This document shows positions 163 to 46,809 of a stretch of 64,000 nucleotides of DNA, piece after piece. Each line of letters begins with the position of its first letter. Within the stretch, counting starts at the first letter, position 1. This stretch comes from Candidatus Eiseniibacteriota bacterium (GTDB lineage Bacteria > Eisenbacteria > RBG-16-71-46 > JAFGJU01): the NCBI GenBank assembly GCA_020349905.1, contig CP070702.1, forward strand, positions 2,230,936 to 2,294,935, written 5' to 3'. The notes under the pieces were generated by a model. It was not told the DNA's origin, searched no databases, and was given only the letters and a program-made list of their open reading frames with translations. A program made the position numbers and the translations under genes.

Positions 163-247
163 TGGTGCGAGAGGGGGGATTCGAACCCCCAAGAGTCTCC
201 TCACTGGATCCTAAATCCAGCGCGTCTGCCAGTTCCGCCACTCTCGC
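163..247 (-). tRNA. tRNA-Leu, anticodon UAG, type II with long variable arm
   Basis: Minus-strand sequence GCGAGAG...CTGGA-TTTAGGA-TCCAG...GGGGGTTCGAATCCCCC-CTCTCGC-A-CCA. It has a 7-bp acceptor stem (GCGAGAG/CTCTCGC), anticodon stem CTGGA/TCCAG with loop TTTAGGA (anticodon TAG, G37), a long variable arm, a T-arm GGGGG/CCCCC with TTCGAAT loop, and an encoded CCA at 163-165. Confidence 0.85.
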
Positions 248-504: not shown

Positions 505-1767
505 CTAGGCAGGACCTCCCAGCAGAGAGCGCACCTCTCTCTCCATCATCTCGTCCATTTCGGGGGCGTAGCCGAGGTGCTTAAAGACGATGAGACCTTC
601 CCGGTTTATCATGTACGTCGTTGGAGTTCCGCGTATCTTATAGATTTCTCTTCCCACGGACTTGTCGTCAATAAGTACCGGAAAGCTCACGCCCGTCTTT
701 TCCACCATCTTCACGGTCTTCTTCTTCTGGTTAGAGTCGTCTACTGCCAGGACTGCAAACTGTTCGCTCGGAAACTTGGCCGCCAGCTCCTCTAGTCGCG
801 GAAACTCCGCGACGCAAGGTCTTCAGGTGGGGCTCGTGAAGTTGAGCAGCAGCACCTTGCCCTTGTAGTCGGCCAGCGACACCATCGCCCCGTCCAGGGA
901 ACGCAGCGAGAACTCCGGAGCCGGGCTCATCCTGCGCTCTCTGCGAACCCGTATCTCTTCCTCCAATCCTTCGGCCGAACCCCTGGTCTCCGTGTAGAGC
1001 TCAACCAGCTTGGAGCGTATCTCCCCGTACTCGCCGGTTTCCATCATCACCAGATACGTTTCTATGGCGTCGTCCTGGCGACCCAGTTCCACCTGAGCCT
1101 CCCCCAGGTACTTAAGAATCTCAGCGTCGGGGTCCTCGCCCGTGAGCTGATTGGCCTGCTCCAGCGCAGCCACCGCCTCCTCTGCGTTACCGGCCTTAAG
1201 ATGTGCCATCCCGAGAGTGGCGAGCGAGTATGTCTTGTCGTATTCGTCTTCGGCCAGAGCCAGGGCCTTGTCACAGAGCTTCACGGCCAGCTCCGGATTC
1301 TGCTCCGCCTCCACCAGGTCGTACCCCATTCCCAGATACACCCACGGGTCCGTCAGAGAGAGCGCCAGGACCTCGGCGCCCAGGGCCGCTATGCTGTCGG
1401 AGTTGGCTGTCTTGACCCAGAAGGCAAACAGCTGGTAGTAGAGCCGCCCCTTCGTATCAACGGGCTCTTCAGAGGCAAGCACGTCGCGCGCGTAAGCCAC
1501 CGCGTGGGAGGTGTCCTCCAGAAAGCTCACGTACGTGTCAAAGATGTACCCGTAAGCGTAGCCGCGATACTCACCGCGGGGATACTGCTCCAGGAACGCC
1601 TGCAGCTTCTCCATTCTCACTCCACCCTCGGTCTGGTCGCGGGCTTCCCTGAGAGCCTCAAGCTCCTTCTCCCGGCCCGTCTCGGAAATCCGAGGGACGT
1701 ACTTGACCGCAAAAAGCGCGATGAGAACTGCAAGGGCCAGTATCAAGACTATGTTTCTCTTAGACAT
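505..1767 (-). CDS. membrane-anchored TPR-repeat / TlpA-like thioredoxin-fold selenoprotein (thiol:disulfide oxidoreductase) with in-frame UGA (823-825) read as selenocysteine in a U-R-P-C redox motif
   Basis: Six-frame ORFs 823..1767 (TM helix plus TPR repeats, ending ...APEFSLRSLDGAMVSLADYKGKVLLLNFTSPT) and 505..714 (thioredoxin-fold C-terminus) are in the same frame (825-714=111). They are separated only by TGA at 825-823. Read-through gives LNFTSPT-U-RPCVAEFPRLEELAAKFP..., i.e. the TlpA/ResA 'NFWAsWCxPC' active site with U at the first Cys. A stem-loop sits 9 nt downstream of the UGA. Confidence 0.8.
795..813 (-). promoter_or_regulatory. putative bacterial SECIS hairpin (GUCGCGG-AGUUU-CCGCGAC) starting 9 nt 3' of the in-frame UGA
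   Basis: Perfect 7-bp GC-rich stem with a 5-nt G/U-containing apical loop immediately downstream of UGA 825-823, at the position and spacing expected for a SelB-binding element. Confidence 0.6.
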
Positions 1768-1962
1768 CCTGTCACTCCTTTCGCACAGGGCGGGGCGGAC
1801 ACTATGCGTGCACGTCGCGCAACGTCGTAGAATCGTTCACGTCGTCGGTGTTCTGTTGCATCTTAACGATACAGCACCGGCCGGGAAAAAGCCACATTCT
1901 TTGGGGCCACACGCTCCCCTTTGCTACCTGACCTTCCGCACGCGACTCCACCGGAGCAAGAG

Positions 1963-3267
1963 CTAGGTCTCGGGAAGTCCCCTCGACAATTGCCGTATGA
2001 GGAGCACGATGGCCATGAGAGCCAGGCCCACAAACGTAAGCGTGGTGGCCTTATCGAGATTCTCCGCAACGAGGCCCACGAGAACGCTGGAAATCAGAAA
2101 CCCGCCGTTAAGCAGGCTGTCCCTGGCGCTGAAGACGCGTCCACGGAACTGGTCCGGCACGGATTTCTGTAGCAGCGCGTCCAGGCATATGAGAACCGGC
2201 GCAAGCGAAATCCCAGCCACGCACGCCAGCAGGTTCATGAATACAAGATTCTTCATCTGCGCAAAGACGATGACAACGATTCCAAACGCCGTCAGCCCAC
2301 CCAGTATGAGACGCCTCTGAGTGATGGCGTGGCCGAATCTCCCAACCAGGAGCGAGCCCAGGATCATCCCGATTCCCAGGGAGCCTATGAGCGTACCCAG
2401 ACCCTCCATTCCCTTCCCGAGCTCTTCTTTCACAAGGACTATGACCAGAACGTAGAGACTACCTCCCGCGAGAGCCAGGGCGATTGCGCTCGCAAACGCG
2501 AACACCGTGGCCTTGTGCGTGAACGCGAACCTCAACCCCTCCCACACCTCCCGGAATATCTTCTTAGACTCCCTCAACGTGGCCTGCATCCCTTTCTGCT
2601 GCTGAGACGGAGGTGCCACCTCTATGTCCTGTGCCCCGCGCACGGCGGGCCTGTACGTTACTAGCAGAAGCATGCCTGCCGAGAAGACATACGTGAGGGC
2701 ATCCAGAACGAAGCTGATGCGCCAGCCCAGGTATCCAACTATCATGCCGCCCGCCACCGCCCCGATGACGGTGGAGGCCCTCGCACCGAAGCTGGCGACC
2801 GAACCCGCCATCAGGAGCTTCCTTCGCGCTATCACGTTCGGAATGAGCGCCAGTTTAGCCGGTGAATAGAAAAGACCCGCCGAGAAGACCAGGAACACGA
2901 CGGCGAACACGACGTGAGAAGCGGTCGAGGGAGACATGAAGCGCGAGATGTAGGGAGAGAAGAACAGAGGAATGAGCAACACCAGAGAGGCCCTCATCAT
3001 GTCGCAGAAGATGAGGACCTTCTTCTTGTTCAGCCTGTCGACGAAAACGCCCGAAATGGGCCCGAAGATGAGGCCCGGGACGGTAACGAAAATCATCAGC
3101 TTGGAAAACTTAAACGTGGAGCCGGGCATCATATCGGAGACCAGCGCGATGAGGGCCATGTGGTTCAGGCGATCGCCGAACTGGGATATGGTCTGCCCGA
3201 TGCTTAGAGCGAGGAAACTCCTGACTCGCAGTACGCTGCCTACGCTGACTCGTCTCTGCGCTCCCAA
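1963..3267 (-). CDS. MFS transporter
   Basis: 12-TM hydrophobic profile. The TM1 motif GQTISQFGD and loop motif GPISGVFVDRLNKKKVL are typical of MFS. The six-frame ORF extends to 3705 but that part is Arg/Gly-rich and overlaps the upstream gene. The proposed start is a TTG at 3267 directly after the upstream stop; the first in-frame ATG (3159) would delete TM1. Confidence 0.6.
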   Translation of the reverse strand: MGAQRRVSVGSVLRVRSFLALSIGQTISQFGDRLNHMALIALVSDMMPGSTFKFSKLMIFVTVPGLIFGPISGVFVDRLNKKKVLIFCDMMRASLVLLIPLFFSPYISRFMSPSTASHVVFAVVFLVFSAGLFYSPAKLALIPNVIARRKLLMAGSVASFGARASTVIGAVAGGMIVGYLGWRISFVLDALTYVFSAGMLLLVTYRPAVRGAQDIEVAPPSQQQKGMQATLRESKKIFREVWEGLRFAFTHKATVFAFASAIALALAGGSLYVLVIVLVKEELGKGMEGLGTLIGSLGIGMILGSLLVGRFGHAITQRRLILGGLTAFGIVVIVFAQMKNLVFMNLLACVAGISLAPVLICLDALLQKSVPDQFRGRVFSARDSLLNGGFLISSVLVGLVAENLDKATTLTFVGLALMAIVLLIRQLSRGLPET

Positions 3268-3269
3268 GG

Positions 3270-4478
3270 CTATCTGTACCCCCAGAGTCCGCCCTCGCCT
3301 CCGGCCCAGCCGCTGGGGGAACCCTCGATGGCATCGACACAGAGGAGCGCTTGCGGGGTCTCCTCGAACAGATACCACGACAGGCCGCCGTCCGTGCTTC
3401 TCAACACGCAGCCGGTAGAACCGTACTCGCCCCCCACAGCCCATCCGTCGACGCTGCTCCAAAATGCTAGAGAGCGGAGCGAGGCATTGGTGGCGCCGGC
3501 CACTTGGCCCCAGCTGAGGCCGCCGTCCGTGGAGCGGATGACAAACCCGTCGTCGCCCACGCAGAGCCCGATATTGGAGGTGCGAAAGAGAACGTCTCTC
3601 AGGCAGGAGGCGGAGACCACGGGACGCTTCACCCAGCTCGCGCCTCCGTTGGTGGTCCTGAGGATGACCTGCCCTTCTCCGGGAACGAATCCTCCGACGG
3701 CCCACCCGAGCGTGGTGTTAAAGAAATAGACCGCAGAAAGACCCTGGGTCACGCCGCTCTGCTGAGGATTCCAGCTGAGGCCGCCGTCAGTCGTGCGAAG
3801 AATCTTCCCCGCCTCTCCGACCGCCCAGCCGTTGGAGACGTCCACGAAGAAAACGTCGTAAAGGTCCGTAGCCACTCCACTGGGGAGCGGAGTCCAGCTC
3901 TGACCGAAGTCGGTCGTCCGAAGGATGATCCCTCCGGTGCCGCACGCCCACCCGTTTGACGGCGAGGCGAAGCTCACCGAAAGCAAGGTCTCGATGGTTC
4001 CGCTCACGACTTCGTTCCAGTTGACGCCGGCGTCGGCGGTCCTAAATACTCGCCCGTTCTGGCCAACTGCGCAGCCGTAGTTCAGAGAGGCGAAGTTGAC
4101 GTCGAAGATGGTGGCGCTCACCTGCGGTATCTGGACCCATCTCAAAGTCCCCTCAAGAGCCTGCATGTGCACGTTCACCGATATCGTATCGTCTCCCGAG
4201 ATGGAAAACGCGAGAGTCGTGTCGCGGTATCCGTCTAGGGTAAGAGTCAGGGTGTAATCGCCCGTCCTCAGAGAGAGGGTGTCAGGAGTCAGCTTGCCCG
4301 TGCTCACGGCGTCAATGTGGATGAGAGCCCTCCCGGGCAGCGAACTCACAAAGAGGAGCCCGCCCGGCGGGGGCGTGGTGGACTTTCCTCCGCAGCCTGC
4401 GAGGAGTAGGCCCGCGAACGCGCACGTTGCGGCGCAGAGTGCGGGAATCCAGAAGGAGGAGCTGTTTCTTCTTTTCAT
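3270..4478 (-). CDS. lipoprotein with PEGA-like domain and Ycf48/BNR-type beta-propeller repeats
   Basis: Signal peptide with lipobox LLAGC, a PEGA-like segment, then repeated '(R)TTDGGxSW' / 'GWAVG' blades characteristic of Ycf48-like/BNR propellers. Confidence 0.6.
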   Translation of the reverse strand: MKRRNSSSFWIPALCAATCAFAGLLLAGCGGKSTTPPPGGLLFVSSLPGRALIHIDAVSTGKLTPDTLSLRTGDYTLTLTLDGYRDTTLAFSISGDDTISVNVHMQALEGTLRWVQIPQVSATIFDVNFASLNYGCAVGQNGRVFRTADAGVNWNEVVSGTIETLLSVSFASPSNGWACGTGGIILRTTDFGQSWTPLPSGVATDLYDVFFVDVSNGWAVGEAGKILRTTDGGLSWNPQQSGVTQGLSAVYFFNTTLGWAVGGFVPGEGQVILRTTNGGASWVKRPVVSASCLRDVLFRTSNIGLCVGDDGFVIRSTDGGLSWGQVAGATNASLRSLAFWSSVDGWAVGGEYGSTGCVLRSTDGGLSWYLFEETPQALLCVDAIEGSPSGWAGGEGGLWGYR

Positions 4479-4616: not shown

Positions 4617-5399
4617 CTATTTTCCTGTGAACTTAGGCTCTCGTTTCTCCAGAAAAGCGCCCACTCCTTCCTTCATGTCCTCGGTGGAGAAACAGAGGCC
4701 GAACATGTTGGCTTCGATGTAACTCCCTTCATCAGTGGAGACCTGGGAACCCTCATCTATGGCCTCCATCGCGTAGCGAACCGCAAGAGGCGGCTTGGAG
4801 AGAAAGACCTCGACCATCTCCTGGCACGTCGTAAGAAGCTCGCCCGGAGGAGTCACCTTGTTCACGAGACCGATCTGGAGGGCCTCCTGGGCGTCCACGA
4901 ACCTGCCAGAGAGGATAAGTTCCATCGCTTTTCCCTTCCCCACCAGCCGCGTGAGTCTCTGAGTCCCGGCGTAGCCGGGTATGAGCCCCAGGTTGAGCTC
5001 CGGCTGGCCCAGCTTCGCCTTCTCTGAGGCCACCCTGATGGTACAGGCCATGGCCAGTTCACACCCGCCTCCGAGGGCAAATCCGTTTATGGCAGCTACG
5101 GAGGGCTAGCCCAGCTTCTCCAGCAGGCGGAAGACGTGCTGCCCCGAAAGCGAGAAGTGCCGCGCGGCCTCAGGGCTTAGGCCCACGAACTCCTTTATGT
5201 CCGCGCCTGCCACGAACGCCTTCTCACCGCTTCCCGTGACTATGACCGCGCCCACTTCGTCGTCGCGACGTATGTCCAGCAGAACTCGCCTCAGCTCGTC
5301 CATGGTGGCCACGTTGAGAGCGTTCAGTACCTTGGGCCTGTTCAGAGTGATGGTGCCTATCCGGTCCTTCTTCTCAAAGAGAATGTTCTCGTAAGCCAT
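4617..5399 (-). pseudogene. enoyl-CoA hydratase (crotonase family) interrupted by a single in-frame TAG (5106-5108) at the conserved Lys of the K-P-x-I-A-A-x-N-G oxyanion-hole segment
   Basis: ORFs 5106..5399 (N-terminus ...RLLEKLG*) and 4617..5051 (C-terminus starting MACTIRV...) are in frame. The 54-nt gap translates PSVAAINGFALGGGCELA, the missing crotonase core. Only the TAG breaks an otherwise intact 261-codon gene. Confidence 0.6.
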
Positions 5400-5435: not shown

Positions 5436-5774
5436 TCAGCATGTCAGATGAAGCGCCGCCACGACGCGCTTCGTCTTGCACAGTTCGTTGTACTTTCGGC
5501 AGGCCTTCGTGGTGTTGAGCACCAGAAGCTCGATTCCCTCAGACTCCAGGAGGTGCTTCGTCTTCACTGGAACCTGGAGAAAACCCGAATACCCCGCGCC
5601 CACTATCACCACTTCGGGTTTCGCCGCCACAATGTCCTTTACGTCCTCCGCGGAAAGCTTGTGCCCCTCCCTCCGCCACCAGTCGCTCACGACTCTGTCG
5701 GGGAAAAGAATGACGTCGGAGGTGTACGTCTTGCCATCAACGATGATCTCTCCGAATTCGTACGAGTCAACCAT
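5436..5774 (-). CDS. Mth938-like domain protein (DUF498)
   Basis: Full-length match to the Mth938 domain pattern (..IVDGKTYTSDVILFPDRVV.WWRREGHKLS.EDV..I....PEVVIVGAGYSG....P.....LESEGIEL.VL.T..ACR.YN..). Confidence 0.6.
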   Translation of the reverse strand: MVDSYEFGEIIVDGKTYTSDVILFPDRVVSDWWRREGHKLSAEDVKDIVAAKPEVVIVGAGYSGFLQVPVKTKHLLESEGIELLVLNTTKACRKYNELCKTKRVVAALHLTC

Positions 5775-7391: not shown

Positions 7392-9110
7392 TTACCTCAG
7401 CAATACCATCTTCTTCGTCTCATTGTGCCCAGACGCTTCCAGCCGGTACAGATACACACCCGACGCAACAGCCCGTCCCGCATCGTCACGACCGTCCCAG
7501 GCAACCTCGTAACGCTGAGGTTTCCGCCAACCTTCAACAAGCGTGCGGATGGCGCGGCCCTCAATGTCAAGAATGCTTAGCACGACCCTCCCCGGCTCGG
7601 GCAATGAGAATCGAATCGTTGTTAGCGGATTGAATGGGTTCGGGCAGTTCTGTTCCAGCGCTGATACTGCGGCCGGCCGCTGGACTGTCTCCCCGACACC
7701 CACAAAACTCCCATCAGCTTCAATACGCTGTGCATAGACGTTGTATGGATTGGCCCCTCGAGTATCCCGCCAAACGATCATAGCTCCTCCCGCTCCATCG
7801 GAGGTCAACCTCGGCTCCTCCTGCTGTCCCGCCGCAGTGCAGATGGCCTGGCCGTTTACTTCCCACAGTCGGACCCCTGACGCGTCCCTGCGCTGGGCGT
7901 AAATGTCCGAATTGTCCCCGCTGCGGTAGTCCTGCCACGTGATTATCGCACCCCCCTCACTGTCCCGGATGATTCTAGGAAGGTTCTGCGAGACCGGGGC
8001 TGCAGAGATCACCACACCTCCGGGCGTCCACAGGTGTGATCCCGCCGCATCAACTCGTTGAGCGTAGATGTTCAACTCATCCGTGGGGCCCGTGTAATAC
8101 GATACCCATGTGACAAATGCACCACCTGAGCCGTCAGGGACGAGCCTTGGTTCGAAAAGTCTGCAGCATGCTGAAGCTATAGGGATTCCGCTGGGACCCC
8201 ACGTGGTATCGCCTGACGCATCTACATGCTGACCGTGTATGGCGGTACTCGAGTAACCGGTCTCCTGTTTCCACACGATTATCGCGCCGCCAGCACCGTC
8301 CGATGCAATTCTGGGACTCCAGTTGTCGTCCGCGAGATTCGAAAGATAAACGCCGTTAGGGATCCAGAGGAGGTTTCCGTCCCCGTCCACGCGCTGGGTG
8401 TAGGCGTGAAAGTTCCCGCCGTTACGCATATCTTCCCAGGTAATGACAGCGCCGCCAAAGTCATCCGGGGCAATATCGATGCACTGTTGGTCAAACGCCG
8501 CGTTACAGATTACCACGCCATTTGTGGTCCACAGCGGAGTGCCGGAGCCGTTCACTCGCTGAGCGTAAACGTCTTCGTCGCTACCGCGCCCGTCACCCCA
8601 CACAATGATTGCGCCGCCCGCATCATCCGAGACTAGCTGCGGAGAGAACTGATTCCCCGGGGCCATGCATACAGCCACACCGTCCACACCCCACAACAGA
8701 TTCGCTGAGCCGTCTATTCGCTGGGCATGTATGTCACCCGGCCTTTCCCACACCACGATCGCACCACCCGAGCCGTCCGACACAATTTCGAGTCCACCGA
8801 GGCCCCATATATCAACAGATCCGGAGATCTTGACTCCGCACGATGCCCACAACTCGTTCCCGTCCGCATCCACGCGTTGTGCATAGACCTTGGTCCCACT
8901 TCGCTCATCCTTCCAGGCAATGATCGCGCCGCCAGCACCATCAAACGCGATGACGGGAGCGTACTGCCAGCCGCCTGCTATACAGATGGGATTTCCGCTG
9001 TCTTGCCAGATGGCGATCGCAGAGGCAGGGAACGTCAGCGCGAGAGCAAAAAGCAACATTGCAGTTCCCTTGTAAGTCTTGACTCTCTCCACAATCTCAC
9101 CCCTTGGCAT
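7392..9110 (-). CDS. secreted beta-propeller-like repeat protein with T9SS C-terminal sorting domain
   Basis: Signal peptide (likely start MLLFALALTFPASAIA at 9059). About 8-9 tandem repeats of a roughly 48-aa unit (SDGAGGAIIVW.D.R.G..VYAQRVD..G..LW). C-terminal roughly 85 aa has NCPNPFNPLTTIRFSL...KKMVLLR, the T9SS type-A sorting domain. Confidence 0.7.
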   Translation of the reverse strand: MPRGEIVERVKTYKGTAMLLFALALTFPASAIAIWQDSGNPICIAGGWQYAPVIAFDGAGGAIIAWKDERSGTKVYAQRVDADGNELWASCGVKISGSVDIWGLGGLEIVSDGSGGAIVVWERPGDIHAQRIDGSANLLWGVDGVAVCMAPGNQFSPQLVSDDAGGAIIVWGDGRGSDEDVYAQRVNGSGTPLWTTNGVVICNAAFDQQCIDIAPDDFGGAVITWEDMRNGGNFHAYTQRVDGDGNLLWIPNGVYLSNLADDNWSPRIASDGAGGAIIVWKQETGYSSTAIHGQHVDASGDTTWGPSGIPIASACCRLFEPRLVPDGSGGAFVTWVSYYTGPTDELNIYAQRVDAAGSHLWTPGGVVISAAPVSQNLPRIIRDSEGGAIITWQDYRSGDNSDIYAQRRDASGVRLWEVNGQAICTAAGQQEEPRLTSDGAGGAMIVWRDTRGANPYNVYAQRIEADGSFVGVGETVQRPAAVSALEQNCPNPFNPLTTIRFSLPEPGRVVLSILDIEGRAIRTLVEGWRKPQRYEVAWDGRDDAGRAVASGVYLYRLEASGHNETKKMVLLR

Positions 9111-9407: not shown

Positions 9408-10952
9408 CTACTTCAGCAAGACCATCTTCTTTGATTCTTTGTAGCCAGGCCCCTCAAGCTGATAGAAGTACACGCCTGAAGCGACTGCTTTGCCGGAGTC
9501 GTCCCGACCGTCCCATGCAACGTCGTAGTGTTGAGCCTCCCGCCAGCCCTCCAACAACGTGCGAACTGGTCTACCAAAAACATCATATACCCGTAGCTCA
9601 ACTAAACCAGGCACGGCAACAGAGAATGTGATATGTGTCAGAGGATTGAACGGATTAGGATAGTTCTGCTTCAGCGCGAATGGCGCGGACATCGGACCTT
9701 GCTCGTCAACCGCAATTACCATGCCAGGGAAGAACTCCACACTCAAGCTGGCATAGTTACTGGCGATCCCACTACCTGCCGTCTCCACATAGTTCTCGCA
9801 AACCCCATAGAACGTATGAGACCCGGCCGCGATGTTATAAGCCTGCGTATGCGAGAAGGAGTTGAATTCCAGATCCGCGCTCACGGCTTCCACTCCGACG
9901 TTGCCGTCGTTGGATTCCCAGTCTCTCTTGTCGCTGGCGGCCACGATGATTCGGTCGCCCACATCAGAGACACATAGGCCTTCATATCTGACGATTGCCG
10001 TCCCCAGCTCCGTTGGACTGATTATCAGGGAGTCCATGACTACCGGCGCACCTCTCACGTAAACATTCGTCTGCGATACTCCGGTATGTTGTACGAAGGC
10101 GTCACCTGCCGACGTTGGAAAGAACTCCACGGTCAGGCTCCCGTAAAACGACGCAATACCGTCCCCGTCCGTCTCCACGATGTTCTCAGCAACGGCGTAG
10201 AAGTCATGCGAACCAGGCCCGATCGAATACATGCGCGAGTGGGAGAACGGCGTAGTGTCGAGATCGCTGTCGATGGCCTCGACCGCGGTGCAGCCATCGT
10301 TGCCGCTCCAGCTGGTTGTGTTGCTGGCGGCGAGAATGATGCGGTCACCCGGAGTTGACACGCACACCCCGTCGAACCGCACGAGAGCGTTACCGGAGAC
10401 ACCGACCGTTATGTTCCTCTGGGCGATCAGGGTGCTCGCCCCACGGACATCTTCGTAATCGACAACGATCCCCGTATGGGATACGAGAGGTACGTCCACC
10501 CCGTCCGGGAAGAACTTGACTACCAGGCTTCCATAGACGGAGGCAATACCTGACCCAGCCGTCTCTACAAAGTTCTCCCCGACAGCGTAGAAAGTGTGAG
10601 TCCCGGCGCTTACCGGATATACCCGGGTGTGTGAAAAGGACCTGATGTTTATATCGCTGTCATATGCCTCCATTTCAGTGTGGCCGTCGTTTGAGTACCA
10701 AAGGGGCGTTTTGCTAGCGGCGAGAATAATACGATCGCCGGGAGAGGACCAGCACTGGCCATCAAACTGGACGACGACGTTGCCGGCCTCAGCAACAGTT
10801 ATGATCTGCTGGGCTAATACAACCGGAGCCCCGCGCATGTTGACATTATCTCGTATGACTCTGCGATGCCAGACTCCGACGTCAGCAGAACAGGGTGCGT
10901 ATGCGACGAGGCATACAAACAGGCACGCGATGCCTATCACTGCGGTTCTCAT
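9408..10952 (-). CDS. secreted protein with three internal roughly 125-aa repeats and T9SS C-terminal sorting domain
   Basis: Signal peptide MRTAVIGIACLFVCLVAYAPCSA. Three copies of a domain (VRGAPVV...GN.VV.FDG.C.S.PGDRIILAAS......NDG...EA..SD.....FSHT..Y....G.H.FYAV.EN.VET.G.GIAS.YGSL.V.FFP). C-terminus is QNYPNPFNPLTHITFS...KKMVLLK. Confidence 0.7.
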   Translation of the reverse strand: MRTAVIGIACLFVCLVAYAPCSADVGVWHRRVIRDNVNMRGAPVVLAQQIITVAEAGNVVVQFDGQCWSSPGDRIILAASKTPLWYSNDGHTEMEAYDSDINIRSFSHTRVYPVSAGTHTFYAVGENFVETAGSGIASVYGSLVVKFFPDGVDVPLVSHTGIVVDYEDVRGASTLIAQRNITVGVSGNALVRFDGVCVSTPGDRIILAASNTTSWSGNDGCTAVEAIDSDLDTTPFSHSRMYSIGPGSHDFYAVAENIVETDGDGIASFYGSLTVEFFPTSAGDAFVQHTGVSQTNVYVRGAPVVMDSLIISPTELGTAIVRYEGLCVSDVGDRIIVAASDKRDWESNDGNVGVEAVSADLEFNSFSHTQAYNIAAGSHTFYGVCENYVETAGSGIASNYASLSVEFFPGMVIAVDEQGPMSAPFALKQNYPNPFNPLTHITFSVAVPGLVELRVYDVFGRPVRTLLEGWREAQHYDVAWDGRDDSGKAVASGVYFYQLEGPGYKESKKMVLLK

Positions 10953-25661: not shown

Positions 25662-28343
25662 GTGAAGTATTTGCGAACGTTGGCTCTGTGTCTCGCCGTC
25701 ACGTGTGTGGCGACCGCTCCTCTCCTTCTCTCCTCCCTGACCGAGGCCCGCACACCCATCAGAAACGCCTTCTTCAACGTCTACCCTTCTGCCGAAGGCA
25801 CCCGCCTGGACGACCTGGCCAGCAGCCCGACTCACTGCGGGGTGTGCCACTTCGACTTCGACGGAGGCGGGCCCAGGAACCCGTATGGGATTGCAGTGGA
25901 GGTGGCTCGCAACTCCGGAATGTACTCCACGGACGAAGAGGTCATTGCCGCCATAGAAGGCGAGGACTCTGACAACGACGGTTTCTCCAGCCTGATAGAG
26001 ATTACCGACACCGTCAACTTCGACAACACCCCCACCTTTCCAGGACTGAATCAGAACAACATTAGCAGCGTCGTTAATGTGAGCGTTATCGAGATAAATA
26101 CTCATCTCACACCTACTGGCGGCGTTGACACGACCCCTCCCGCAGTTGTAGTGCTCTCTCCGAACGGCGCGGAAAGCTTCGATGCAAGCACCGTCAGAAA
26201 CGTCACCTGGTCTGCGTCCGACGCGAGTGGCATCTCCCACGTGAACATCTACCTTTCTGATGACAACGGCCTCACCTACATGCCGATAGCCAAGGGTAGG
26301 CCCAACGACCAGCCTTTTAGCTGGCACGTGCATAACCTGCCCGGTACGCAGAACCTGATTCGCGTCGTGGCAAAGGACAACGCGGGCAACAGCGGCTTCG
26401 ACGATAGTGACAGTCCTTTCACCATCATCCGCTATCCATTCGGCAGGGTGCCATCGACGCTGCGAGACGTAAGACTTTCCGGGACCCAGCCCTTAGAAGG
26501 CGGAATACTTGAAGACCCGGACGTGAGCTGCATAACCTGCCACGGCAACTACGACGTCGTTGCTGAACCCTGGCACAGCTGGAGAGGCAGCCCGATGGGC
26601 CAGGCAGCAAGGGACCCTCTGTTTCTGGCGTGCCTGGTGACTGCCGAGCAGGCCGCTCCCTCTGTGGGAGACCAGTGCCTTCGCTGTCACACCCCGGGAG
26701 GATGGCAGGAGGGACGCGCCGTCGACACGTTCGGGAACATGATAAACGCCAAGGATCGCCAGGGCGTGCAGTGCGACTTCTGCCACCGTGCCGTGGACCC
26801 TGACTACAAGCTAGGCATAAGTCCCCTGGAGGACGTCGCCGTACTCGACTCCCTGGACGCCATCCCCATGGACTACGCGAACGGCCAGTTCGTCACGGAC
26901 CCCAATCCGTTCAGACGCGGGCCCTTCTTTGACGCAGAGTCCAGCCACGGCTTCCTGGAGTCTCCGTTCCATCGCAAGTCAGAGATGTGCGGCACGTGCC
27001 ACGACGTCAGTAATCCCGTGTACGTGAGGGGTGCGACGCCTGACGAATACGTTCCGAACGCTTTCGATTCTCCGCACCCGGACGGGGATCAAGCCAACAT
27101 GTTCCCGCTTGAACGTACGTTCAGCGAATGGTCCATGAGCGAATATGCTTCCACGGGCGTTTTTGCACCTCAGTTTGCTGGGAACAAGCCGGACGGCATA
27201 GTGTCTACCTGCCAGGACTGCCACATGTCGGACGTTAACGCAAGGGGAGCCAGTGTACCGGGTACTCCGACGCGTCCGGACCTGCCGCTTCACGACTTCA
27301 CGGGAGGCAACTACTTCATCGCCGACATCCTGCCCAGCTTCTACCCCGGAGAGGTCGATTCGCTGAGACTGCTCGACGCCAAACTGAGAGCTATCGCCAT
27401 GCTTCAGAAGGCCGCGAGCATTTCGCTCATAGCGGGAGACGAGCCTCCTCATCTCAAGTTGACCGTGGTCGTGGTGAACGAGACGGGCCACAAGCTGCCC
27501 ACCGGCTATCCGGAAGGCAGGCGCATGTGGCTGAATGTTAAGGTCTACGACGACGAATCTAATCTAGTCTACGAATCTGGTGCCTACGACGAGGAAACTG
27601 CTCTTCTGGGGGACGACCCGGATATCAAGGTCTATCAGATAAAGCCGGGTATTTCTCGCCGGATATCCCCTGTTGTCAGCATCCCGTTCGGGCCGTCGTT
27701 CAATTTTGTCATGAACGACACGCTATTCTCGGACAACCGGATTCCGCCGAGAGGTTTCACCAACGCCAACTTCGAGGCCATACAGTCCCAGCCTATCGCA
27801 TACAGCTATGCAGACGGCCAATTCTCGGACACGACGACGTACCTGGTGCCTCCCACTGCGGTCTTCGCCGAGGTGAAGTTGTACTATCAGACAACGACCA
27901 GGGAATACATCGAGTGGCTGAGAGACCACAACGCCACAAACAGCATGGGACAGGACCTGTTGGACGCCTGGGCCAGGGAGGGAAAGTGCGCTCCGGTAGC
28001 AATGGCGACCGACACGATAAGCCTGCAGCTTCCGGTAGATGTTCCGATCAGAGAGGCCCCCGGCTTCCGCAACGCGCTGTTCCAGAACACACCCAACCCG
28101 TTTAATCCACTTACGAACATCGCCTATTCTCTTGAGTCGGCGGGACGAGTCAGCATCAGGGTCTACGACGTGAGGGGAAGTCTCGTCCGCACTCTGGTGG
28201 ACGCTGTGAAGCAGGCAGGGATGCACGAGGCCCTCTGGGATGGCCGCAGCGACGCGGGTGGGGCCGTCTCATCAGGCGTCTACGTGGTCAGGATGAACGT
28301 GAACGGCTACGAAGCGGTCCGCAAGGCCGTGCTCCTCAAGTGA
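25662..28343 (+). CDS. secreted multiheme (six CxxCH) c-type cytochrome with T9SS C-terminal sorting domain
   Basis: GTG start with GGAGGGAGG RBS. Signal peptide. Heme motifs CGVCH, CITCH, CLRCH, CDFCH, CGTCH, CQDCH. C-terminal 85 aa NTPNPFNPLTNIAYSL...RKAVLLK is homologous to the sorting domains of the two cargo proteins at 7392-10952. Confidence 0.8.
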   Translation: MKYLRTLALCLAVTCVATAPLLLSSLTEARTPIRNAFFNVYPSAEGTRLDDLASSPTHCGVCHFDFDGGGPRNPYGIAVEVARNSGMYSTDEEVIAAIEGEDSDNDGFSSLIEITDTVNFDNTPTFPGLNQNNISSVVNVSVIEINTHLTPTGGVDTTPPAVVVLSPNGAESFDASTVRNVTWSASDASGISHVNIYLSDDNGLTYMPIAKGRPNDQPFSWHVHNLPGTQNLIRVVAKDNAGNSGFDDSDSPFTIIRYPFGRVPSTLRDVRLSGTQPLEGGILEDPDVSCITCHGNYDVVAEPWHSWRGSPMGQAARDPLFLACLVTAEQAAPSVGDQCLRCHTPGGWQEGRAVDTFGNMINAKDRQGVQCDFCHRAVDPDYKLGISPLEDVAVLDSLDAIPMDYANGQFVTDPNPFRRGPFFDAESSHGFLESPFHRKSEMCGTCHDVSNPVYVRGATPDEYVPNAFDSPHPDGDQANMFPLERTFSEWSMSEYASTGVFAPQFAGNKPDGIVSTCQDCHMSDVNARGASVPGTPTRPDLPLHDFTGGNYFIADILPSFYPGEVDSLRLLDAKLRAIAMLQKAASISLIAGDEPPHLKLTVVVVNETGHKLPTGYPEGRRMWLNVKVYDDESNLVYESGAYDEETALLGDDPDIKVYQIKPGISRRISPVVSIPFGPSFNFVMNDTLFSDNRIPPRGFTNANFEAIQSQPIAYSYADGQFSDTTTYLVPPTAVFAEVKLYYQTTTREYIEWLRDHNATNSMGQDLLDAWAREGKCAPVAMATDTISLQLPVDVPIREAPGFRNALFQNTPNPFNPLTNIAYSLESAGRVSIRVYDVRGSLVRTLVDAVKQAGMHEALWDGRSDAGGAVSSGVYVVRMNVNGYEAVRKAVLLK

Positions 28344-45609: not shown

Positions 45610-46809
45610 TCAGATTCGCTTCATGGCCTGCCGGAGGTCGTAGATGAGGTCGTCCACGTCCTCCAGACCGACCGAGAGCCGGACCAGTCCCTCGGTGATG
45701 CCTACCTCTTCCAGCTCTTCCGGAGTGTACCCGCAGTGCGTCATCGTGGCGGGGTGCTGAATGAGGGTGTCCACGTCTCCCAGGCTCACCGCCAGTACGC
45801 AGACCTCCACACTGTTCATCAGCTTCCGTCCGGCCTCCCTCCCCCCCTTGAGCTCGAAGGCTATCATCCCCCCGGGGCCTCTCATCTGCCTCTTCGCAAG
45901 CTCGTACTGCGGGTGAGTACGCAGCCAGGGGAACCACACCCTGCTGACCTTGGGATGGAACGAGAGGAACTGAGCTATCTCCATGGCGTTCTCTGAGTGT
46001 TTCTCCATGCGGACCGGAAGCGTCTTAAGTCCCCTCAGAAGCAGCCAGGCGTTGAAGGGGCTGATTACCCCACCCAGGTCTCTCAGAAACTCCTTCTTCA
46101 ACTGCTTGATTCCGTCGGCAGGCCCCACGATGATGCCCGCTACCGTGTCGCCGTGCCCGCCGATGTACTTCGTGGCGCTGTGCAGCGAATAGTCTGCGCC
46201 CAGCTCCAGTGGGTTCTGATAGTACGGAGTGCAAAAGGTATTGTCCACCACCAGGGCCACTCCCTGCTTCCTGGTTATGGATGCCACTGCCTCGATGTCC
46301 ACGAGCTTGAGAGTGGGGTTGGCCGGTGTCTCGATGAAGACCAGCCTCGTTCTCTCGTCTATGGCCCTTTCTATGTTCTGGGGGTCGGAGGCGTCTACCT
46401 CCTGTACCTCGATGTTGAGGCGGGGAAACGTATTCACGAATAGTTGATGAGTGCCTCCGTAGAGAGTGTCTGACGCAACGACCTTCTCGCCGCTCCGCGC
46501 GAGACTGATGATGAGCGTCGCCGTGGCGGCCATCCCGGAGGCCGTTGCCAGGCCCGCCTCCCCACCTTCCAAGAAGGCCATCTCGTTTTCCAGGGCGGTC
46601 TGCGTGGGGTTTCCGAGTCTGGTGTAGTAGTAACCTTCCTGCTCGCCGGCAAAGATGGCGGCTCCCTGTTCCGCACTTTCAAAGGCGAAGGTCGAACTCT
46701 GGAAGATCGGGGTGGAAAGAGCACGGATGGGAATCTGCGTCTCGTGTTTGTCCAGGCGCTTCTTCCCGTGCACCGCTATCGTTGCGAAACCCAGCTTCCT
46801 CTCTTTCAT
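45610..46809 (-). CDS. PLP-dependent Cys/Met-metabolism enzyme (methionine gamma-lyase / cystathionine gamma-synthase family)
   Basis: 399 aa with the SATKYIGGHGD PLP-lysine motif and overall family conservation. Confidence 0.75.
   Translation of the reverse strand: MKERKLGFATIAVHGKKRLDKHETQIPIRALSTPIFQSSTFAFESAEQGAAIFAGEQEGYYYTRLGNPTQTALENEMAFLEGGEAGLATASGMAATATLIISLARSGEKVVASDTLYGGTHQLFVNTFPRLNIEVQEVDASDPQNIERAIDERTRLVFIETPANPTLKLVDIEAVASITRKQGVALVVDNTFCTPYYQNPLELGADYSLHSATKYIGGHGDTVAGIIVGPADGIKQLKKEFLRDLGGVISPFNAWLLLRGLKTLPVRMEKHSENAMEIAQFLSFHPKVSRVWFPWLRTHPQYELAKRQMRGPGGMIAFELKGGREAGRKLMNSVEVCVLAVSLGDVDTLIQHPATMTHCGYTPEELEEVGITEGLVRLSVGLEDVDDLIYDLRQAMKRI

Follow-up and report, generated by a model that had tools for sequence, protein, structure and literature searches.

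A predicted TPR-TlpA selenoprotein gene with a covarying SECIS-type hairpin in the candidate phylum Eiseniibacteriota

Introduction

The 'Prx-like thiol:disulfide oxidoreductase' family of selenoproteins (Kryukov and Gladyshev 2004) is characterized by the domain PF00578 and a UxxC or UxxU motif (PMC13188914; PMC1794560). In the passages of these two sources that treat the family, it is predicted from a conserved UGA, a bacterial SECIS element (bSECIS) and Cys homologs, lacks biochemical characterisation, and has described members in Deltaproteobacteria and marine metagenomes, with WP_010940744.1 among its published representatives. The 2026 review adds that SECIS predictors miss some classes (PMC13188914).

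The gene described here lies in a 64-kb stretch of DNA from the candidate phylum Eiseniibacteriota, the whole of which was analysed and is referred to as the window. Its predicted product resembles the Prx-like family as an AhpC/TSA-type protein (PF00578) with selenocysteine (Sec) in the first position of UxxC. The affiliation is by the family definition as worded in those passages (PF00578 plus UxxC), with PF00578 as the best Pfam match and U-R-P-C as the motif. A TPR solenoid, a P-T-U signature or a member from Eiseniibacteriota is nowhere mentioned in these passages.

Results

Reading frame and annotation

The minus-strand frame runs from ATG 1767-1765 to TAG 507-505 and comprises 421 codons (420 residues and the stop). 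Its sole internal stop within 1767..505 is the TGA at 825-823, codon 315, in the peptide context ...LLLNFTSPT-[TGA]-RPCVAEFP... A Shine-Dalgarno-like AAGGAG (1775..1780, minus strand), a putative ribosome-binding signal judging by its sequence, is located 7 nt 5' of the ATG. The gene continues across the TGA. The read-through CDS (505..1767, minus strand), predicted to encode an anchored TPR-TlpA selenoprotein, shows indel-free collinearity with the orthologs L001-L004, and five full-length orthologs are collinear in the same manner. A preliminary description of this DNA had pointed to homologs ending at the TGA as one observation that would speak against read-through; all orthologs instead continue in frame to the same stop (TAG, 505..507, minus strand), which follows ...LLGGPA. 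When every in-frame TGA on either strand of the 64 kb was scored by codon-usage log-odds, TGA 825-823 ranked first for coding signal on both of its flanks.

Downstream of the TGA, the earliest ATG, GTG or TTG in the window (714) comes only after the CxxC region. The NCBI record of this MAG nevertheless holds two proteins, a 314-aa 'tetratricopeptide repeat protein' and a 93-aa 'TlpA family protein disulfide reductase', the latter starting at a DNA CTG. The same two-gene split was found in every public record examined, both at NCBI and at JGI. The preliminary description had reported two same-frame ORFs parted solely by the TGA and had foreseen truncation by automated annotation; it was correct on both points, and all of its coordinates hold.

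Domain architecture

The protein begins with MSKR and 17 hydrophobic residues, as read from the sequence. This N-terminal segment (residues about 5-22, NIVLILALAVLIALFAVK; 1702..1755, minus strand) is helical in the AF2 model and, in contrast to most family members, has no lipobox Cys. It is presumed to be an uncleaved signal anchor, a topology that would place the remainder of the protein in the periplasm. The segment is followed by an all-alpha TPR-like solenoid of 13 helices (residues 48-279; 931..1626, minus strand), which extends from helix H48-61 through H266-279 in a model with a mean pLDDT of 88.4. Pfam assigned TPR_12 (33.1 bits, cut-off 30.1) and TPR_2 (30.5 bits, cut-off 27) to this N-terminal part, in agreement with the long TPR domain originally claimed along with the membrane anchor.

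The C-terminal part is a thioredoxin-fold domain of the TlpA/ResA/DsbE type (residues 281-415; 523..927, minus strand), and the TGA lies inside it. AhpC-TSA (PF00578; E 5.9e-20, 71.9 bits, gathering cut-off 26) was the best Pfam match, accompanied by Redoxin (PF08534; E 4.4e-17, 62.7 bits, gathering cut-off 26.6), and both alignments cover residues 281-403 and thus span codon 315. Residue U315 sits between strand 305-311 and helix 317-330 of the AF2 model, i.e. at the canonical CxxC site. Cys318 (TGC, 814..816, minus strand), the resolving Cys of U-R-P-C, is conserved in every ortholog and every Cys homolog without exception. The codon for Pro382 (622..624, minus strand), within R-G-T-P-T-T, corresponds to an invariant column (P108) aligned with the Cys homologs, which, from what is generally known of the thioredoxin fold, we take to be its conserved cis-Pro.

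Conservation of the in-frame TGA

A TGA occupies the identical codon in 9 of 9 close orthologs with 60-79% identity. Sixty-two more distant family members, from named genomes, were found in GTDB with the pattern N-F-W-x-P-T-TGA-x-x-C, which includes the TGA and excludes the bases of the hairpin. The pattern yielded 91 matches, comprising these 62 true TlpA-like read-through ORFs and 29 chance matches, close to the approximately 35 estimated by hand. In the ungapped alignment of the 9 orthologs and the 62 pattern-found members, the TGA (823..825, minus strand), the proposed Sec codon at the first, nucleophilic position of U-x-x-C, is present in 71/71 sequences, and the frame is kept without indels in all of them. 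Among the five full-length orthologs, identity over the 105 codons 3' of the TGA is 68-86%, and each pair has 32-45 synonymous codon differences, similar to the N-terminal part. The UGA is under selection.

In seven Cys homologs, the first Cys of W-C-x-P-C aligns with the U of T-U-x-P-C. Placement of the TGA at the first Cys of a thioredoxin-fold CxxC motif, here T-U-R-P-C of the TlpA/ResA type, had been read from the letters of the window, and the alignment proposed as its check agrees with it in all seven cases. The Cys-form relatives that were to be sought do exist and include one (P0067) with the same TPR architecture.

The SECIS-type hairpin

Nine nucleotides 3' of the TGA starts a hairpin, GTCGCGG/AGTTT/CCGCGAC (795..813, minus strand), embedded in the codons for V-A-E-F-P-R. 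It had been noticed as a perfect stem of 7 bp; its coordinates are right, and RNAfold adds an A-U pair to give an 8-bp stem (5' arm 813-806, 3' arm 802-795) with a GUU loop (805-803) and -12.6 kcal/mol. Shuffled versions averaged -3.4 kcal/mol (z = -5.2), and 0 of 200 were as stable. The wider 71-nt stretch is of ordinary stability (z = -0.93), and the fold signal therefore resides in the hairpin proper. A lower stem, CCUU/GAGG, seen in the fold of the window was dropped, as its base pairing is not kept by the orthologs.

The published bSECIS model specifies a loop of 3-9 nt with a G in its first two positions, an upper stem of 4-16 bp, a UGA-to-loop distance of 16-37 nt, and an MFE of at most -7.5. 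The hairpin agrees with it on all four counts, having GUU as its loop, a stem of 8 bp, a distance of 17 nt and an MFE of -12.6 kcal/mol, and the ortholog hairpins have MFEs of -9.5 to -12.0 kcal/mol. Across the 71-sequence ungapped alignment, 86.1% of the pairing cells are paired compared with 66.6% in shuffles (0/500), and the covariation score is 0.480 compared with 0.114 in shuffles (0/500) and a maximum of 0.118 in slid controls. Four stem pairs have changed on both sides in 12-43 of the 71 sequences each, by synonymous as well as amino-acid-changing substitutions, and stem covariation is present also among the nine close orthologs. Synonymous-codon identity amounts to 76% in the hairpin codons and 48% elsewhere, the highest of 107 six-codon windows. 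The hairpin is under selection.

In five Cys-form homologs, no more than 2-4 of the 8 pairs can form in the same register, and the local MFEs are -0.3 to -4.6, compared with -14.0; this holds even where the peptide is nearly identical (CRAEFPY, CVAELPN). Among the 62 members from the genome scan, three (L026, L099 and L102) lack a hairpin in this register. The suggestion that the element is placed like a SECIS is thus strengthened by its fit to the published model, its strong covariation and its absence from the Cys forms. No Rfam family matched the hairpin, in a database that covers bacterial SECIS elements poorly; at a permissive E-value, positions 740-860 gave chance matches to microRNA-like hairpins only.

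Sec machinery and genomic neighborhood

Searches with E. coli SelA, SelB and SelD (tblastn) against the 64-kb window and about 100 related loci gave a best E of 0.15. A weak SelA-like match at 45919-46410 belongs to a PLP enzyme of Cys/Met metabolism. ARAGORN and Rfam detected tRNA-Leu as the only tRNA in the window and no tRNA-Sec, and neither selA, selB, selD nor tRNA-Sec was found in the approximately 100 related loci. Sec machinery elsewhere in the organism, implied according to the preliminary description, is at this stage a prediction. A codon-model scan of all in-frame TGAs revealed no other selenoprotein gene in the window. The second high-scoring TGA, at 5438, is an ordinary stop between a DUF498 gene and an enoyl-CoA hydratase gene in the same frame. 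The enoyl-CoA hydratase gene itself contains a TAG (5108-5106) where the ortholog has Lys, a probable nonsense mutation or consensus error.

The neighboring genes (an MFS transporter, a BNR/PEGA protein and tRNA-Leu) provide no functional clue. A Pfam scan of about 40 window genes detected housekeeping functions (Nuo subunits, ETF, MetK, RND efflux, PmbA/TldD and glycosyltransferases) and no ccm, ccdA, dsbD, sco or msr gene; likewise, Pfam scans of the window genes showed no cytochrome c maturation or Sco/Cox genes nearby. Promoter and terminator scans gave no informative signal.

Discussion

Decoding of UGA codon 315

We consider it highly probable, at roughly 0.9, that UGA codon 315 is decoded as selenocysteine in a single 420-residue periplasmic TPR-TlpA reductase; from the sequence we infer Sec as the residue inserted at this position. 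Were the TGA a genuine stop, the locus would encode a 314-residue TPR protein with the first two thioredoxin strands and, independently translated, a C-terminal fragment. Gene callers indeed split the locus in every record, and some orthologs carry a GTG five codons past the TGA, but the corresponding codon in the window is GCG, the earliest start codon is at 714 and the NCBI fragment has to begin at a CTG. Termination would sever the thioredoxin fold precisely at the catalytic residue and leave the covarying hairpin without a role. The residues from the TGA to any start codon (RPCVAEFPRLEEL) are conserved in the protein, and the frame is free of indels in 71/71 sequences. A genuine stop is hence very improbable. 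Slightly less so, while still improbable, is read-through with a residue other than Sec, either by a near-cognate or suppressor tRNA (Trp, Cys or Gly) or by lineage-specific reassignment, with the hairpin as a general read-through stimulator. Stimulatory hairpins 3' of leaky stops are general knowledge from other systems, and such decoding would fit with the Sec machinery not being found in the 64-kb window and the approximately 100 related loci. Reassignment is, however, contradicted by the window itself, in which about half of the long ORFs terminate with TGA. The codon moreover falls on the catalytic Cys of a redox motif, the signature site of Sec/Cys exchange, the loop, spacing and energy of the hairpin fit the SelB-type bSECIS model, and family members are found in Acidobacteria and Deltaproteobacteria, for which selenoproteins are already known.

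Two further explanations dispute the significance of the codon or of the hairpin. A pseudogene mutation or an assembly or sequencing error in a Cys-type TlpA gene (TGC or TGT) would have a precedent in the probable nonsense or consensus error at TAG 5108-5106 of the same window, but it can hardly be reconciled with 71 independent assemblies, spread over several phyla, that all have TGA at this codon, nor with a downstream frame that is intact and under purifying selection; of all explanations it is the one we credit least. The hairpin might also be a codon by-product of the conserved peptide C-x-x-E-x-P with no function as RNA. GAG (Glu) and CCN (Pro) automatically yield one or two apical pairs, and both residues are conserved in the Cys homologs as well. 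These homologs, however, with the peptides CRAEFPY and CVAELPN, reach 2-4 of 8 pairs and no stable local fold, and neither the compensatory stem changes, synonymous and amino-acid-changing, nor the excess of synonymous-codon identity in the hairpin is accounted for by the peptide; we regard this origin as highly improbable.

Proposed mechanism

If codon 315 is decoded as Sec, the hairpin 9 nt 3' of the UGA, with its 8-bp stem and GUU loop, would be the binding site of SelB loaded with Sec-tRNA(Sec). This hairpin coincides with the codons of the conserved active-site segment C-x-x-E-x-P. The mature protein would then act on the periplasmic side as a thiol:disulfide (selenol:selenenylsulfide) reductase, in which Sec315 would attack the substrate disulfide and Cys318 would resolve the intermediate. 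By analogy, recruitment of substrates or of partner proteins is the most likely role of the TPR solenoid. The predicted oxidoreductase would presumably work in the reductase direction and receive electrons from a CcdA/DsbD-type donor; any view of its substrates likewise draws on analogy.

Size and range of the family

A profile of the N-terminal part retrieved 102 cluster representatives at E<=1e-10, with Sec and Cys types both present. The fusion of TPR and TlpA, judged unusual in the preliminary description, is thus common, these 102 representatives sharing the N-terminal part. Among these best 102 representatives, 74 are of the Sec type and 19 of the Cys type. Members occur in Acidobacteriota, Eisenbacteria (the seven MAGs JADJQY01, CAWGMA01, CAVPCR01, JBHGAY01, CAIMUX01, WJJW01 and JBIOUT01), Gemmatimonadota, Krumholzibacteriota, Myxococcota, Fervidibacter and Anaerolineales. 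Lipoproteins are numerous among them, and so are proteins with a TPR solenoid. No NCBIfam model scored above its cut-off for the family, and a literature search for TlpA, tetratricopeptide and selenoprotein gave nothing relevant on bacteria. Whether these sequences represent a large, mainly Sec-type family of extracytoplasmic TlpA-like reductases, with a P-T-U-x-x-C motif, a family-wide SECIS and no NCBIfam model of its own, is in our judgment an even call. Selenoproteins with a thioredoxin fold and a UxxC motif were already described in 2004, and fusion to a TPR part is common, so that the window gene is a further member of an already known kind.

The general understanding of how selenoproteins work is unchanged by this locus. 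Its immediate relevance concerns annotation: the gene is mis-annotated as two in all public records examined, at least 74 protein clusters (50% identity) are divided in the same way, and as no NCBIfam model reaches its cut-off, a family-specific model would mend many annotations. The family would also give SECIS predictors a clean and useful example, in which a strongly covarying stem of 6-8 bp with a GUN loop and a fixed spacing is superimposed on an active-site peptide motif. Sec decoding is implied for Eiseniibacteriota and related uncultured phyla, for which no report was found. As a literature search for Eisenbacteria or Eiseniibacteriota with selenocysteine or selenoprotein returned no earlier report, the window gene may be the first evidence of Sec decoding in this candidate phylum. 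The ratio of Sec to Cys members, about four to one by sequence, suggests a real catalytic advantage of selenium in this predicted extracytoplasmic reductase.

Comparison with known systems

In its fold, the C-terminal domain corresponds to ResA of Bacillus subtilis, CcmG/DsbE and TlpA of Bradyrhizobium. The nearest structures found by Foldseek in the PDB were DsbE (3gl3) and ResA (1st9), with a TM-score of 0.90 on the target and an rmsd of 1.5-1.7 A. Common to all of them are a membrane anchor, presumed in the window protein, the segment CxxC-x-x-E-x-P and a cis-Pro. In contrast to these Cys-type proteins, the window protein has a predicted Sec in place of the first Cys and Thr (P-T-U) in place of Trp (W-C), and a TPR solenoid of 230 residues is inserted between anchor and domain. 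Its scores against the NCBIfam models for ResA (NF002854, 86.1, cut-off 170), DsbE (TIGR00385, 52.1, cut-off 123) and TlpA (NF047696, 52.5, cut-off 230) all remain below the cut-offs, and the protein therefore has a TlpA-like fold yet stands outside the three named families.

Curated selenoprotein families of the TlpA/redoxin type are NF041054 (ResA-like WAxxUGC motif-containing protein), likewise extended by a long N-terminal segment, and NF053656 (TUGYCR motif thioredoxin fold (seleno)protein). The window protein scored far under both cut-offs (35.8 of 300 and 24.1 of 100, respectively), and six other family members reached 31-63 of the 300 set for NF041054. The motifs differ accordingly, P-T-U-x-x-C (P-T-U-R-P-C in the window) being distinct from WAxxU-G-C in NF041054 and T-U-G-Y-C-R in NF053656. 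Closer in architecture are metagenomic Cys-type fusions (P0067, P0006, P0007 and P0008) with the same order of TPR and TlpA parts. The N-terminal profile aligned with P0067 over profile positions 53-313, and the motif region of this protein is FWFPA-C-GPC-RAEFPYL. In these fusions Cys takes the place of Sec, and the first Cys codon is not followed by a hairpin.

The reference bacterial SECIS is that of Escherichia coli fdhF. With it the window hairpin shares the location within the CDS immediately 3' of the UGA, an apical loop containing G and U, and a similar spacing. The two differ in sequence, and the window element has a shorter, perfect stem with no bulged U and a 3-nt GUU loop as the putative SelB site.

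The TGA codon and its reading frame

The gene at 1767..505 of the minus strand starts with ATG (1767-1765), 7 nt downstream of an AAGGAG motif, and ends with TAG (507-505). Its frame of 421 codons holds a sole internal stop, TGA at 825-823 (codon 315), flanked by the peptides ...KGKVLLLNFTSPT-[TGA]-RPCVAEFPRLEEL... Re-reading of the sequence confirmed the coordinates of gene, TGA and hairpin in the preliminary description. All in-frame TGA codons of both strands were scored with a codon-usage model whose training set was the window's long ORFs; TGA 825-823 ranked first for coding signal on both flanks. The truncation expected from automated annotation has occurred: NCBI lists two products, one of 314 aa ('MAG: tetratricopeptide repeat protein [Candidatus Eiseniibacteriota bacterium]', on a contig of 2.69 Mb) and one of 93 aa, a 'TlpA family protein disulfide reductase' of the same MAG (P0027; window about 783-505, minus strand). 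The initial M of the latter is CTG (Leu) in the DNA, a rare start codon that the pipeline needed to call the orphan fragment.

Three orthologs with 63-67% identity are split likewise, each into a product of exactly 314 aa and a 101-aa redoxin gene that is annotated separately. A fifth full-length ortholog was taken from a metagenome scan and four further, more divergent ones were obtained via C-terminal fragments. The TGA occupies the same codon in nine of nine orthologs, within the motif T-U-[R/G/K/T]-[P/A]-C. The five full-length genes align collinearly, with no indel anywhere, and their conservation pattern after the TGA matches that before it; downstream of the TGA, ortholog pairs share 68-86% protein identity at 32-45 synonymous codon differences. 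In an alignment to seven homologs of the Cys type, the TGA falls on the first active-site Cys of W-C-x-P-C, as the proposed reading demands. The second Cys, a Glu and both Pro are invariant in this alignment, the second Pro being what we take to be the cis-Pro position of the thioredoxin fold.

In the window, the earliest ATG, GTG or TTG 3' of the TGA lies at 714, past the redox motif, which leaves no functional domain that could be translated separately. Nor is TGA reassigned in this organism, given that roughly every second long ORF in the window ends with it. Conservation of the UGA, the Cys homologs and a hairpin of the bSECIS type thus support the Sec-decoded, TlpA-like reading of the preliminary description, and we put the probability of a single Sec-decoded gene at roughly 0.9. 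We infer Sec as residue 315 from the site of the UGA, the homologs with Cys and the putative SECIS, not from the decoding machinery: selA, selB, selD and tRNA-Sec were detected neither in the 64-kb window nor in any fetched related locus.

The candidate SECIS element

The hairpin GTCGCGG-AGTTT-CCGCGAC (813-795, minus strand) starts nine nt after the TGA. RNAfold adds an A-U pair, which makes the stem 8 bp long, reduces the loop to GUU and yields -12.6 kcal/mol; shuffled 19-mers averaged -3.4 kcal/mol (z = -5.2) and none of 200 was equally stable. The bacterial consensus, as outlined in a 2026 review of prokaryotic selenoproteomes, comprises an upper stem of 4-16 bp capped by a loop of 3-9 nt, a G within the first two loop positions, a UGA-to-loop distance of 16-37 nt and an MFE <= -7.5 kcal/mol (PMC13188914). 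The hairpin first noted as SECIS-like falls within this model (GUU loop; stem of 8 bp; 17 nt from UGA to loop; -12.6 kcal/mol), and its stem covaries. Ortholog hairpins reach -9.5 to -12.0 kcal/mol, paired cells amount to 97% among the nine orthologs versus 29-61% in slid controls, and two pairs of the stem have changed in a compensatory way (C-G to U-A; U-A to C-G or U-G). Synonymous-codon identity is 76% in the six hairpin codons versus 48% elsewhere, the highest of 107 six-codon windows.

Distribution of the family and covariation of the hairpin

The preliminary description called the fusion of TPR and TlpA domains unusual, which did not hold up: when 1.84 billion cluster representatives were searched with a profile built on the N-terminal 314 residues, 102 matched at E<=1e-10. 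Of these, 74 stop no more than four residues from where the profile ends, the fetched truncated representatives terminating in ...NFW[HSF]PT, NFMSPT or IWSPT. Another 19 run on for at least 80 residues and are presumably Cys forms; P0067, the one continuing representative fetched, reads FWFPA-C-GPC. In one distant representative, NFWHPT-TGA-GACRVEYPHL is accompanied by the hairpin GUGUGGA-GUA-UCCACAC. A separate subgroup of the profile matches (P0049, P0068 and P0071, 435 aa each) is cut at the same profile position, ending in FFSYG, FWGYT or FWGYG instead of xPT; by sequence, this subgroup may be a second Sec-type lineage with another flanking motif.

GTDB species genomes were scanned with AAYTTYTGGNNNCCNACNTGANNNNNNTGY (N-F-W-x-P-T-TGA-x-x-C), a pattern that specifies no hairpin base. 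The scan returned 91 matches, about 35 being expected by chance (an estimate); 62 were confirmed by domain HMM as TlpA-like read-through ORFs and 29 were noise. The 62 members derive from many Acidobacteriota, seven Candidatus Eisenbacteria MAGs, Gemmatimonadota, Krumholzibacteriota, Myxococcaceae, other delta proteobacteria, Fervidibacter and Anaerolineales. In nearly all, a hairpin of 6-8 bp occupies precisely the register seen in the window gene, with differing stems (CGUGAGGA/UCCUCAC, CGUGCGGA/UCCGCAC, GCUCGGGA/GCCCGAGC, GUAACGGA/UCCGUUAC and others). In an ungapped alignment of 71 sequences, paired cells reached 86.1% versus 66.6% after shuffling (0/500 shuffles), and the covariation score was 0.480 versus 0.114 (0/500), at most 0.118 with a slid partner. 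Each of four stem pairs is changed on both sides in 12-43 sequences, with up to five pair types.

Five distinct Cys-form genes served as control in the same register. They form 2-4 of 8 pairs, with a local MFE of -0.3 to -4.6 versus -14.0 in the window. Two of them encode a near-identical peptide (CGPCRAEFPY, CRPCVAELPN), yet the hairpin is missing; hence it tracks the UGA and not the peptide. Three of the 62 scan members (L026, L099, L102) lack the in-register hairpin. The two from Anaerolineales, L099 and L102, have instead, further downstream, a GC-rich hairpin of the GCUGCCGG-UCCU-GGCAGC type, at roughly 17 nt from the UGA, which may be an alternative SECIS placement.

The frame after the TGA usually spans 103-115 codons; in the loci L021, L031 and L064 it extends to about 294-304 and in L048 to 587, which suggests that further domains follow the TlpA domain at the C-terminus. 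Some genomes encode two or three Sec-type paralogs (L035/L050/L077 in the Acidobacteriota MAG SMAG_U14095; L028/L086 on the Acidobacteriota chromosome OZ244217.1). On contig DATKUA010000145.1, two Sec-type genes adjoin two Cys-type TlpA genes, thus the family is locally expanded.

Domain structure and proposed function

With Cys substituted for the internal stop, Pfam assigned AhpC-TSA (E 5.9e-20) and Redoxin (E 4.4e-17) to residues 281-403, a domain that therefore spans codon 315, and TPR_12 and TPR_2 above cut-offs to residues 144-209. The AlphaFold2 model (mean pLDDT 88.4, pTM 0.75) consists of an N-terminal helix including a hydrophobic segment (residues 5-22), a solenoid of thirteen helices (48-279) and a thioredoxin fold (281-415). 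Residue 315 follows strand 305-311 and precedes helix 317-330, where a CxxC motif canonically sits. The nearest PDB structures to the thioredoxin-fold domain in Foldseek were Chlorobium DsbE (3gl3) and Bacillus ResA (1st9), with a TM-score of 0.90 on target and an rmsd of 1.5-1.7 A, followed by TlpA, Etrx and related extracytoplasmic reductases. The protein scored below the curated cut-offs of the NCBIfam models for ResA, DsbE and TlpA and of the TlpA-type selenoprotein models WAxxUGC_long and TUGYCR; seven scanned family members matched no NCBIfam model at cut-off. The protein is TlpA-like in fold and outside all named NCBIfam families.

The N-terminus, MSKR followed by 17 hydrophobic residues, has no lipobox Cys, which suggests a signal anchor that leaves most of the protein on the periplasmic side. 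A lipobox occurs in most other family members, which would be lipoproteins. SelB with Sec-tRNA(Sec) would bind the GUU-loop hairpin with the ribosome at UGA315, leading to Sec insertion. With ResA, CcmG, TlpA and Etrx as models, the U-x-x-C pair would reduce disulfides outside the cytoplasm, or possibly sulfenates or methionine-sulfoxide-reductase partners, and would be recycled by a membrane electron carrier of the CcdA/DsbD type. The most obvious part to recruit substrates or partners would be the TPR solenoid. No functional hint came from the conserved neighbours (MFS transporter and BNR/PEGA protein, then trigger factor-ClpP-ClpX-Lon in orthologs).

Genomic neighbourhood

A tRNA-Leu gene (anticodon TAG; 163-247, minus strand) lies directly downstream of the selenoprotein gene. 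The orthologous loci have here a 381-386-aa protein of unknown function and then trigger factor-ClpP-ClpX, so synteny breaks downstream. A mechanically called 580-aa MFS transporter ORF (1963-3705, minus strand) overlaps the BNR/PEGA gene (3270-4478, minus strand) by more than 400 nt. The MFS proteins of the orthologs have 398 aa; the true start is therefore near 3168 and the N-terminal extension an artefact. The enoyl-CoA hydratase gene (4617-5399, minus strand) has an in-frame TAG at 5108-5106 (LEKLG*PSVAAINGF), where the ortholog in the related locus L001 (IEKLGKPVIAAINGF) has Lys, a single-base difference of AAG to TAG. This is probably a nonsense mutation or a MAG consensus error and, not being a TGA, is unrelated to Sec. 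Three large proteins (7392-9110 and 9408-10952, minus strand; 25662-28343, plus strand) have a C-terminal FlgD Ig-like domain as sole Pfam match (E about 1e-8), apparently a sorting or anchoring domain common to the C-termini of secreted proteins that are otherwise unknown.

Relation to known selenoproteins

Our literature search retrieved no paper linking Eisenbacteria/Eiseniibacteriota with selenocysteine. Selenoproteins are already known from Acidobacteria and Deltaproteobacteria, both of which also contain members of the family. According to the accounts consulted, thioredoxin-fold selenoproteins with UxxC have been recognised since 2004, among them the 'Prx-like thiol:disulfide oxidoreductase' family, that is PF00578 with UxxC (PMC13188914, PMC1794560). 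That annotation pipelines cut such genes short is textbook knowledge. As both the proteins and their mis-annotation are known, the window gene joins a known kind; less obvious is the scale, a large and mostly Sec-type family with a sharply defined SECIS in several poorly studied phyla.
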